The notes under the pieces: generated by a model
What the model saw: the letters and a program-made list of their open reading frames with translations, nothing else
Databases searched by the model: none
Told to the model about the DNA's origin: nothing
Program-made: the position numbers and the translations under genes
Source of the DNA: a phage
Direction: 5' to 3' (one strand)
Length of the DNA: 39,751 nucleotides
Sequence record: PZ402302.1
Shown: piece by piece, positions 25,535 through 26,955 of the stretch
Numbering within the stretch: the stretch's first letter is position 1
Layout: each line of letters begins with the position of its first letter

Positions 25535-25557
25535 TAATACGACTCACTATTGGGAGA
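25535..25557 (+). promoter_or_regulatory. phage RNAP promoter (phi10-like, class III)
   Basis: ttaatacgactcactattgggagagag: full consensus. Confidence 0.9.
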
Positions 25558-25726: not shown

Positions 25727-26770
25727 ATGGCTAAGATGAATGGTGGTCAGCAAATTGGTAAAGACCAAGGTAAAGGTATGTCTGCTGGTGATAAACTGGC
25801 TCTGTTCCTGAAAGTGTTCGGTGGTGAAGTTCTGACCGCGTTTACTCGTACCTCTGTTACCATGAACAAACACCTCGTACGTTCCATTCAGTCCGGTAAG
25901 TCCGCGCAGTTCCCTGTGCTGGGTCGTACCAAAGCTGCTTACCTGCAACCGGGTGAGAACCTCGATGACAAACGTAAAGACATGAAGCACACTGAGCGTA
26001 CCATTAACATTGATGGTCTGCTGACTGCTGACGTTCTGATTTACGACATCGAAGACGCAATGAACCACTATGACGTGCGCTCCGAGTATACCGCACAGTT
26101 GGGTGAATCTCTTGCGATGGCTGCTGATGGCGCGGTTCTGGCTGAAATGGCTAAACTGTGTAACCTGCCGTCTGCGTCTGATGAGAACATCGCTGGTCTC
26201 GGTAAGGCTCATGTACTGGAAGTTGGCAAGCAGTCTGAGCTTCGTGGAGACCAAGTTAAGCTGGGTCAGGCTATTATCGCACAGTTAACTCTGGCTCGTG
26301 CCAAGCTGACTGGCAACTATGTTCCGTCTGCTGACCGTGTGTTCTACACCACTCCAGACAACTACTCTGCTATTCTGGCTGCTCTGATGCCTAACGCTGC
26401 AAACTATCAGGCTCTGATTGACCCGTCTACTGGCTCTATCCGCAACGTTATGGGCTTCGAAGTTATTGAGGTTCCGCACCTGACTGCTGGTGGTGCTGGC
26501 GAAGACCGTCCAGAAGAAGGTGTAAATCCGACTGGTCAGAAACATGCGTTCCCTGAGACTTCCTCTGGTGACACCCGTGTTGCTCTGGACAACGTTGTCG
26601 GTCTGTTCAATCACCGCTCTGCCGTTGGTACTGTTAAGCTGAAAGATATGGCACTGGAACGTGCTCGTCGAGCTAACTTCCAAGCAGACCAGATTATCGC
26701 TAAGTACGCTATGGGTCACGGTGGTCTGCGCCCTGAAGCATGTGGTGCGCTGGTTTTCAACAAGGCTTAA
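25727..26770 (+). CDS. 10A: major capsid protein 10A (T7 gp10A-like), 347 aa
   Basis: GDKLALFLKVFGGEVLTAF, SGKSAQFPVLGRT.AAYL.PGENLDDKRKD.KHTE, LLTADVLIYDIEDAMNHYDVRSEYT.QLGESLAMAADGAVLAE, RANFQADQIIAKYAMGHGGLRPEA match recalled T7 capsid; RBS aaggag. Confidence 0.97.
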   Translation: MAKMNGGQQIGKDQGKGMSAGDKLALFLKVFGGEVLTAFTRTSVTMNKHLVRSIQSGKSAQFPVLGRTKAAYLQPGENLDDKRKDMKHTERTINIDGLLTADVLIYDIEDAMNHYDVRSEYTAQLGESLAMAADGAVLAEMAKLCNLPSASDENIAGLGKAHVLEVGKQSELRGDQVKLGQAIIAQLTLARAKLTGNYVPSADRVFYTTPDNYSAILAALMPNAANYQALIDPSTGSIRNVMGFEVIEVPHLTAGGAGEDRPEEGVNPTGQKHAFPETSSGDTRVALDNVVGLFNHRSAVGTVKLKDMALERARRANFQADQIIAKYAMGHGGLRPEACGALVFNKA

Positions 26771-26904
26771 CTTCTCGCAAACTCGTAGGGGACACTGAGT
26801 CCCTTACTGAAGTTGAGCAAGAGCTAACGCCACAACAGAAAGCTGCCCGTACCCGTGCGGCAAACAAGGCTCGAAAGGAAGCTGAGTTAGCTGCTACTGA
26901 ATGA
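25727..26904 (+). CDS. 10B: minor capsid protein 10B by programmed -1 ribosomal frameshift (shift at GGTTTTC 26752-26758)
   Basis: Heptamer G GUU UUC lies 10 nt before the 10A stop; -1 frame stays open 49 codons (QQGLTSRKLVGDTESLTEVEQELTPQQKAARTRAANKARKEAELAATE) to TGA 26902-26904; same arrangement as T7 10A/10B. Confidence 0.65.
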
Positions 26905-26916
26905 TAACTATATGAA

Positions 26917-26955
26917 ACCCCTTGGGTGCCTTCGCGGGTGCTTGAGGGGTTTTTT
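26917..26955 (+). terminator. late terminator for phage RNAP (Tphi-like)
   Basis: aaccccttgggtgcc-ttcgc-gggtgcttgaggggttttttcg: G/C-rich stem with G-U pairs plus U-run, closely resembles recalled T7 Tphi; immediately after gene 10. Confidence 0.85.

Follow-up and report, generated by a model that had tools for sequence, protein, structure and literature searches.

A Probable T7-Type −1 Ribosomal Frameshift at the End of Capsid Gene 10 in a Phage of the Genus Berlinvirus

Organization of the Gene 10 Region

The analyzed stretch of DNA (PZ402302.1, 39,751 nt; hereafter, the window) contains gene 10A of the major capsid protein (25727–26770, plus strand; taken from the list of open reading frames), which encodes 347 amino acids in the zero frame and ends with the stop codon TAA at 26768–26770. 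Its product matched the Pfam family PF21703 (Gp10A-like, E-value 6e-107). T7-like capsid chains in the PDB matched residues 1–345 of 10A, with the T7 10A chain 2xvr at an E-value of 3e-166, and the capsid identity between the window and T7 was 77% (tblastn). The gene 10 transcript is driven by the phage RNA polymerase promoter phi10 (25535–25557, plus strand), a perfect match to TAATACGACTCACTATTGGGAGA located at the position of the annotated promoter phi10A of phage Kvp1.

Near the end of gene 10A lies the slippery heptamer G_GUU_UUC (26752–26758, plus strand; Val343–Phe344), assigned as the −1 shift site from its sequence and phase. The −1 frame is open from position 26737, and its part used as the tail of 10B (26758–26904, plus strand; from the open reading frame list and translation) comprises 48 codons (QQGLTSRKLVGDTESLTEVEQELTPQQKAARTRAANKARKEAELAATE) and the stop codon TGA. 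The post-slip start is CAA at 26758–26760, the last sense codon is GAA at 26899–26901, and TGA at 26902–26904 is directly followed by TAA. The +1 frame is closed after nine codons. The predicted full-length 10B has 392 amino acids and a mass of 42.05 kDa; the sequence of its tail is QQGLTSRKLVGDTESLTEVEQE-LTPQQKAARTRAANKARKEAELAATE.

A Tphi-type intrinsic terminator acting on the phage RNA polymerase (26914–26955, plus strand) with an 18-bp hairpin, a UUCG loop, and a U6 run was recognized by folding and by alignment to T7 Tphi. The hairpin (26914–26953) with its U-run (26950–26955) had a folding energy of −25.5 kcal/mol and a z-score of −3.9; it aligned with the annotated Tphi of T7 and with the terminators labeled ‘phiTE’ in BA14 and Yepe2. 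The motif CCCC at 26918–26921 belongs to the conserved 5′ arm of this type of hairpin.

An earlier note on this DNA had placed GGTTTTC at 26752, near the 10A stop, which was borne out by the position and register of the heptamer. Its distance of 10 nt to the stop holds only if counted from end to start, there being nine intervening nucleotides. The open −1 frame and its TGA were also as described, while the 49 further codons given in the note include the stop, the number of sense codons being 48. The statement that this frame ends immediately before Tphi agrees with a terminator hairpin beginning 9 nt after TGA.

The genome is of the T7-like type and belongs to the genus Berlinvirus (Autographiviridae, Studiervirinae). 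Escherichia phage 285P had 99.5% DNA identity to the window over the gene 10 region, and Escherichia phage nasanit 97.6% across the first 25 kb of the window, the terminase large subunit being among the genes matched by this part. Compared with the canonical T7 map, the window is a circular permutation, with gene 10 at 25.7 kb instead of about 21.5 kb. The sequence TAATACGACTCACTATTGGGAGA is almost the T7 promoter consensus, and 11 sites matching or close to it were found in the window (3229, 9720, 10345, 10869, 13222, 17012, 21935, 24541, 25535, 29999, and 37339) vs. 0 expected. No tRNA genes were found in the window, and the Rfam scan of the whole window at gathering thresholds gave no family matches.

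Slip Site and Its Occurrence in Relatives

The heptamer GGTTTTC is phased CTG GTT TTC, its first base being codon position 3, which corresponds to the register X_XXY_YYZ; three codons, AAC AAG GCT (9 nt), separate it from TAA. By itself, GGTTTTC was not enriched in the window (3 copies vs. 4.8 expected), and the two remaining copies are out of register with their open reading frames.

Relatives were sampled from IMG/VR (80 sequences with capsid identities of 56–100%, 78 of them with a complete 3′ end). The site GTT_TTC was scored when in register inside the last 12 codons, and an extension was considered long when it had at least 39 codons. An in-register GTT_TTC near the stop was present in 38 of the 78 relatives. 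Conservation of the −1 frame, to which the earlier note had tied its reading, was evident: 37 of these 38 relatives retained −1 extensions of 39 codons or more, and a +1 extension of this length occurred in none of the 38. Since 37 of 38 relatives combine both, the association of an in-register site with a long −1 frame is strongly non-random. Some relatives (L032, L106, and L058) carry A or C as the first base of the heptamer.

Among relatives with neither GTT_TTC nor C_CCA_AAG, the long −1 frame (at least 39 codons) was found in 12 of 30. Those with the long −1 frame include L047, L053, L063, L065, L066, and L078; several of these −1 extensions end with ...ACA AAG GCx TGA, and these endings suggest another slip site of the lysine type (A_AAG). 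In L044 and L054, +1 extensions of 223–225 codons were present instead, which may be simply the overlapping downstream gene.

In phage BA14 (L003), positions 1623–1644, equivalent to 26750–26770 of the window, read CTG GTT TTA AAA AAG TCT TAA. Here, an in-register U_UUA_AAA overlapping with a dnaX-type A_AAA_AAG replaces G_GUU_UUC, and the slip site of BA14 may be more efficient or shifted. According to the GenBank record of BA14, the product ‘may be translated via slippery sequence’. In Yersinia phages PYPS50, PYps50T, and PYps49T, the gene 10 match is in two pieces, separated by an annotated ‘hypothetical protein’, and covers about 174 bp beyond the query length; the split match points to an insertion within or beside gene 10.

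The −1 Frame Tail

The tail peptide is identical among Kvp1, 285P, BSP161, and S523. Its conserved core LTPQQKAARTRAANK (26824–26868, plus strand) is homologous to the tail of T7 10B and forms the start of the predicted C-terminal helix. In tblastn searches with the tail, only residues 1–27 were aligned, the K/R/A-rich core being masked as low complexity; owing to this masking, the core was traced among relatives by a degenerate DNA pattern. The Pfam search with the window tail gave no matches.

The 15 codons of the core occur in 19 distinct DNA versions encoding only four peptides. Variable columns by codon positions 1, 2, and 3 numbered 4, 1, and 15, respectively, so that all 15 third positions vary, and both alternative frames of the core hold stops in nearly all DNA versions. 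Pairwise dN/dS values of the whole tail were 0.16–0.51, with 0.32 between the window and T7. The codon periodicity of the core, the dN/dS values, and the stops in the other frames together exclude a purely RNA- or DNA-level explanation of the conservation; this comparison of sequences shows the tail to be under protein-level selection.

None of the solved T7-like capsid structures in the PDB reaches past residue ~345. An AF2 model of the last 77 residues, run in single-sequence mode and of low overall confidence (mean pLDDT of 58), consisted of a disordered linker followed by a C-terminal helix covering PQQKAARTRAANKARKEAELAAT, the only moderately supported part, where block-mean pLDDT values were 75–82. 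The tail is built of a linker, probably flexible and with little conservation between families, and a conserved, Lys/Arg/Ala-rich predicted helix (KAARTRAANKARKEAEL) shared with T7 10B.

In some Yersinia phages the tail is shortened. In Yep-phi (L011), the change of GAG to TAG cuts it after 19 residues and breaks one pair of the outer stem of the hairpin described below. In Yepe2 (L004), a 1-nt insertion shortens the tail to 39 amino acids; in the same phage, the 10A stop TAA is changed to CAA, making 10A six codons longer and one hairpin pair stronger. From these sequences, the 10B tail seems to be decaying in phages of Y. pestis. The shortened tails of Yep-phi and Yepe2 indicate that the tail is dispensable in some lineages at least.

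Virion Peptides of Kvp1

Positions 26700–26955 of the window, covering the end of 10A, the heptamer, the tail, and the terminator with its U-run, are base-for-base identical to those of Kluyvera phage Kvp1. In Kvp1 virions, a band of 43.6 kDa yielded three unique peptides with m/z values of 2244.123, 2372.219, and 2692.310, which belong to residues 327–372 (PMC2579914), and the authors took TTTTCA to be the site of a −1 frameshift (Lingohr et al. 2008, Virol J 5:122; PMC2579914). Virion mass spectrometry across the junction, the check suggested in the earlier note, had already been carried out in Kvp1.

We computed the tryptic masses of 10B from the window: 2244.124 for residues 353–372, 2372.219 for residues 352–372, and 2692.308 for the junction peptide 327–351, YAMGHGGLRPEACGALVF|QQGLTSR (...ALVF|QQGLTSR), with carbamidomethylated Cys and oxidized Met. 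The published masses of Kvp1 and those of the peptides predicted from the window agree within 0.002 Da. The expected junction would be ...FNQG... if the slip took place one codon later and ...ALGF... if it took place one codon earlier; thus, the junction peptide puts the shift at GUU/UUC. It reads the same for one and for two slipping tRNAs, because TTT and TTC both encode Phe. Predicted 10B peptides of this phage include LVGDTESLTEVEQELTPQQK and YAMGHGGLRPEACGALVFQQGLTSR.

Kvp1 belongs to the same genus, Berlinvirus, and its record (GenBank FJ194439) annotates a joined 10B of 42,069 Da. It differs from the phage under study in host and isolate, and also in the promoter phi11 between Tphi and gene 11, which is present in Kvp1 and absent from the window. 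In addition, the Kvp1 study found ‘no typical slippage site’, and the only structure it put forward was a putative pseudoknot at the terminator rather than the proximal hairpin (PMC2579914).

RNA Structures Downstream of the Slip Site

Folding revealed a two-tier RNA hairpin (26765–26818, plus strand) that begins 6 nt downstream of the heptamer and is a candidate for a proximal stimulator of frameshifting. Its outer stem (26765–26774/26809–26818) contains the UAA of 10A, and the inner stem (26785–26793/26799–26807) carries the loop ACUGA. The 72 nt following the heptamer folded with −25.3 kcal/mol and a z-score of −3.4, which was reached by 0 of 200 shuffles. The 54-nt hairpin core was within the most stable 0.09% of all 54-nt segments of the genome and exceeded anything inside 10A.

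In 12 Berlinvirus-type sequences, the pairing was kept in 98.7% of cells, and four pairs were changed on both sides (matched by 0 of 500 shuffles), with almost all of the covariation coming from one lineage, L018, in which 9 bp and the 5-nt loop are kept and the inner-stem sequence is different. All other families with T7-type tails (T7, L038, L024, and L106) had a significant hairpin 5–8 nt after the heptamer with z-scores from −2.3 to −3.8, always spanning the 10A stop. In the T7 family, the pairing was maintained at 91.7% vs. 24–56% in slid controls; covariation in this family did not exceed that of shuffles and is compatible with the structure without proving it. Phages with Ig-like tails and the same heptamer, as well as T3, had no comparable structure (z-scores of −1.1, +0.5, and −0.75, the last one for T3).

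Judging from folding and conservation, the hairpin is a plausible rather than proven proximal stimulator, which may act by pausing the ribosome. That a two-tier hairpin sequestering the 10A stop is an undescribed proximal stimulator common to all phages with T7-type (non-Ig) tails is a tentative and rather doubtful proposal. If the hairpin does stimulate the slip, it would account for a linker variable in peptide sequence over strongly folded RNA, and it could complement or reinterpret the unexplained effect of the distal terminator in T7. This would be a small addition to the old question of what stimulates frameshifting in T7 gene 10; the hairpin of conserved architecture is the sole mildly new element of our analysis.

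Published work on T7 emphasizes a distal element instead: CCCC of T7 Tphi was reported to affect gene 10 frameshifting, the long-range effect being unexplained (PMC5009743); our statements on the stimulators of T7 rest on this review (Atkins 2016). Long-range pairing of the 5′ arm of Tphi with the 80 nt after the heptamer was considered and dropped, as the best duplexes (from −13 to −18 kcal/mol) were shuffle-like. Complementarity between the Tphi arm and the slip region in four families was not significant (z-scores of −1.7, −0.8, −0.35, and +0.24).

Frameshifting and Alternative Explanations

All sequence-testable defining features of the T7-type frameshift family were present in the window. 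With high confidence, we interpret the feature as a programmed −1 ribosomal frameshift of the T7 gene 10 type (10A/10B). The assignment of the 10A/10B frameshift to the window is correct, and the phenomenon is expected and already known; at the level of sequence, our data confirm that this Berlinvirus has the T7-type 10A/10B arrangement in unchanged form.

Most ribosomes on the phi10 transcript would read CUG GUU UUC AAC AAG GCU UAA and release 10A of 347 amino acids. A minority would slip one base back at G_GUU_UUC, with tRNA-Phe re-pairing from UUC to UUU and tRNA-Val re-pairing poorly from GUU to GGU. Having slipped, these ribosomes would resume at CAA, extend the chain by 48 residues in the −1 frame, and terminate at UGA-UAA, which lies 9 nt upstream of Tphi. 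The hairpin at 26765–26818, 6 nt downstream of the heptamer, may pause the ribosome and stimulate the slip. The resulting minor capsid protein 10B of 392 amino acids and 42 kDa would co-assemble into the head. Tandem re-pairing is expected to be weak, as the heptamer is non-canonical, GGU not being XXX, and its first base varies to A or C among relatives. From this and from the weak re-pairing of Val, we infer that the slip of Phe is the essential one. A frameshift efficiency of about 10% is quoted for T7, and by analogy the efficiency here would also be about 10%.

It is very improbable that the −1 reading frame is an independent small gene ‘gp10b’ of 54 amino acids, translated from ATG at 26740 with no frameshift. 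This ATG does exist in the −1 frame, and the GenBank records of 285P, Yepe2, and several more phages annotate a separate coding sequence there; however, it is a by-product of the Cys339 codon of 10A (GCA TGT), and at this place most relatives carry Ala/Val codons without a start. Of 23 distinct relatives sharing this tail, 20 lack any ATG, GTG, or TTG in the stretch from the upstream −1 stop to the TTT codon, which implies that the tail can be entered only from the 10A frame. No convincing Shine–Dalgarno sequence was seen by eye in the region preceding ATG 26740 (GCCCTGAAGC). Moreover, the 43.6 kDa band of Kvp1 holds peptides of both 10A and the tail (PMC2579914), and the mass of the junction peptide fits a fusion. 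The same masses would be produced by transcriptional slippage, in which the phage RNA polymerase adds one U in the T4 run, as the predicted ...VFQQ... protein is identical; in this respect, the Kvp1 data do not separate the two mechanisms. Productive slippage of RNA polymerase needs runs of roughly 7–9 or more, but the homopolymer at the slip site has only four T. The structured RNA at a spacing of 6 nt suits a ribosomal mechanism, and the T7 case is classed in the literature as ribosomal frameshifting (PMC5009743), so we give transcriptional slippage very little credence.

It could also be supposed that no functional 10B is made and that the −1 frame stays open and conserved as a non-coding by-product, for instance of constraint on an RNA or DNA element located between gene 10 and Tphi. 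In favor of this are the strong RNA structure in the proximal part of the tail region, the weak conservation of the linker peptide across families, and the shortened tails of some lineages. This explanation is hardly credible in view of the third-position periodicity in the core (15 of 15 vs. 4 and 1), the stops in both other frames, the dN/dS of 0.16–0.51 for the tail, and the detection of 10B protein in Kvp1 (PMC2579914).

Under programmed −1 ribosomal frameshifting, the correct feature is join(25727..26758,26758..26904), encoding a minor capsid protein of 392 amino acids, not a separate ‘gp10b’ of 54 amino acids. In 285P, nasanit, Yepe2, and others, the tail is given as a separate small open reading frame or omitted; the separate ‘gp10b’ is a recurring annotation artefact of the genus. 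The demand of the earlier note for a frameshift join is fair: it is used in the records of Kvp1 and T7 and not in those of 285P, nasanit, and Yepe2.

Comparison with Known Frameshifting Systems

The −1 frameshift of T7 gene 10 was reportedly described by Dunn and Studier in 1983 and by Condron, Atkins, and Gesteland in 1991. In T7, 10A has 345 and 10B 398 amino acids, and the record annotates a join. The arrangement at the locus mirrors that of T7, as the earlier note had proposed: the heptamer G_GUU_UUC, its register, and the 9 nt to the 10A stop are identical, the tail core ...LTPxQ(K/E)AARTRAANKARKEAELAA is homologous, and the tail stops just before Tphi with its conserved AACCCCUUGGG arm. 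The alignment with T7 10B suggested there as a check revealed the core LTPxQKAARTRAANK common to both tails (T7: ...TLTPAQEAARTRAANKARKEAELAAATAEQ). In T7, a hairpin is also predicted 5 nt after the heptamer, but its sequence differs from that in the window. Other differences are the T7 tail of 56 amino acids with an unrelated linker (GVMLGVASTVAASPEEASVTSTEET) and the distance from the slip site to the terminator, 177 nt in T7 vs. 156 nt in the window. T7 phage display makes use of the C-terminus of 10B, which is exposed on the surface, and this position is therefore a possible engineering site in this phage.

The E. coli dnaX gene (gamma/tau) also undergoes a −1 shift on bacterial ribosomes and, like the window, combines a slippery heptamer with a 3′ stem-loop at ~6 nt. 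In dnaX, A_AAA_AAG acts together with a Shine–Dalgarno-like stimulator located ~10 nt upstream, the efficiency is ~50%, and the product of frameshifting is shorter. A dnaX-type cassette was rejected for the window, which reads TTC AAC AAG at this place. An upstream Shine–Dalgarno-like stimulator was also rejected by eye: the only candidate, GGUG (GGTG in the DNA), has its 3′ end 4 nt upstream of the heptamer, a spacing unsuited to −1 stimulation.

T7 gene 10 has been listed as a bacterial example of X_XX = G_GU (Atkins 2016 review, PMC5009743). The same unusual pattern occurs in the site G_GUU_UUU of Cardiovirus 2B* (PMC5009743); that system is eukaryotic and is stimulated by the viral protein 2A on a 3′ stem-loop, its sequence and biology being unrelated to those of the window.

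In phages T3 and phiYeO3-12, a −1 frameshift near the end of the homologous capsid gene also yields a minor capsid protein, and the distance of 9 nt from the end of the slip site to the stop matches that in the window. The slip site is, however, C_CCA_AAG, with the slip on tRNA-Lys, and the tail is a Big_2 Ig-like domain of 89 amino acids (Pfam E-value 4e-10); T3 also lacks a significant predicted proximal hairpin, as given above. Assignment of the window to the T3 type was rejected, since there is no CCCAAAG near the stop and the tail has no Big_2 match in Pfam.

Different tails were found behind the same site G_GUU_UUC/U in L059, L060, L062, L064, and L069; L015 and L082; and L051 and L068. 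One type is a Big_2 Ig-like domain of 89–90 amino acids (E-value 5.6e-19), and another has 91–96 amino acids and no Pfam match. The third type, of 475 amino acids, combines the Big_2 domain with 388 amino acids containing the motif ‘FEGDSLT’, reminiscent of GDSL/SGNH hydrolases; Pfam gave no matches for this 388-aa C-terminal part of the L051 tail. Across these sequences, the slip site and the tail module appear to assort independently.
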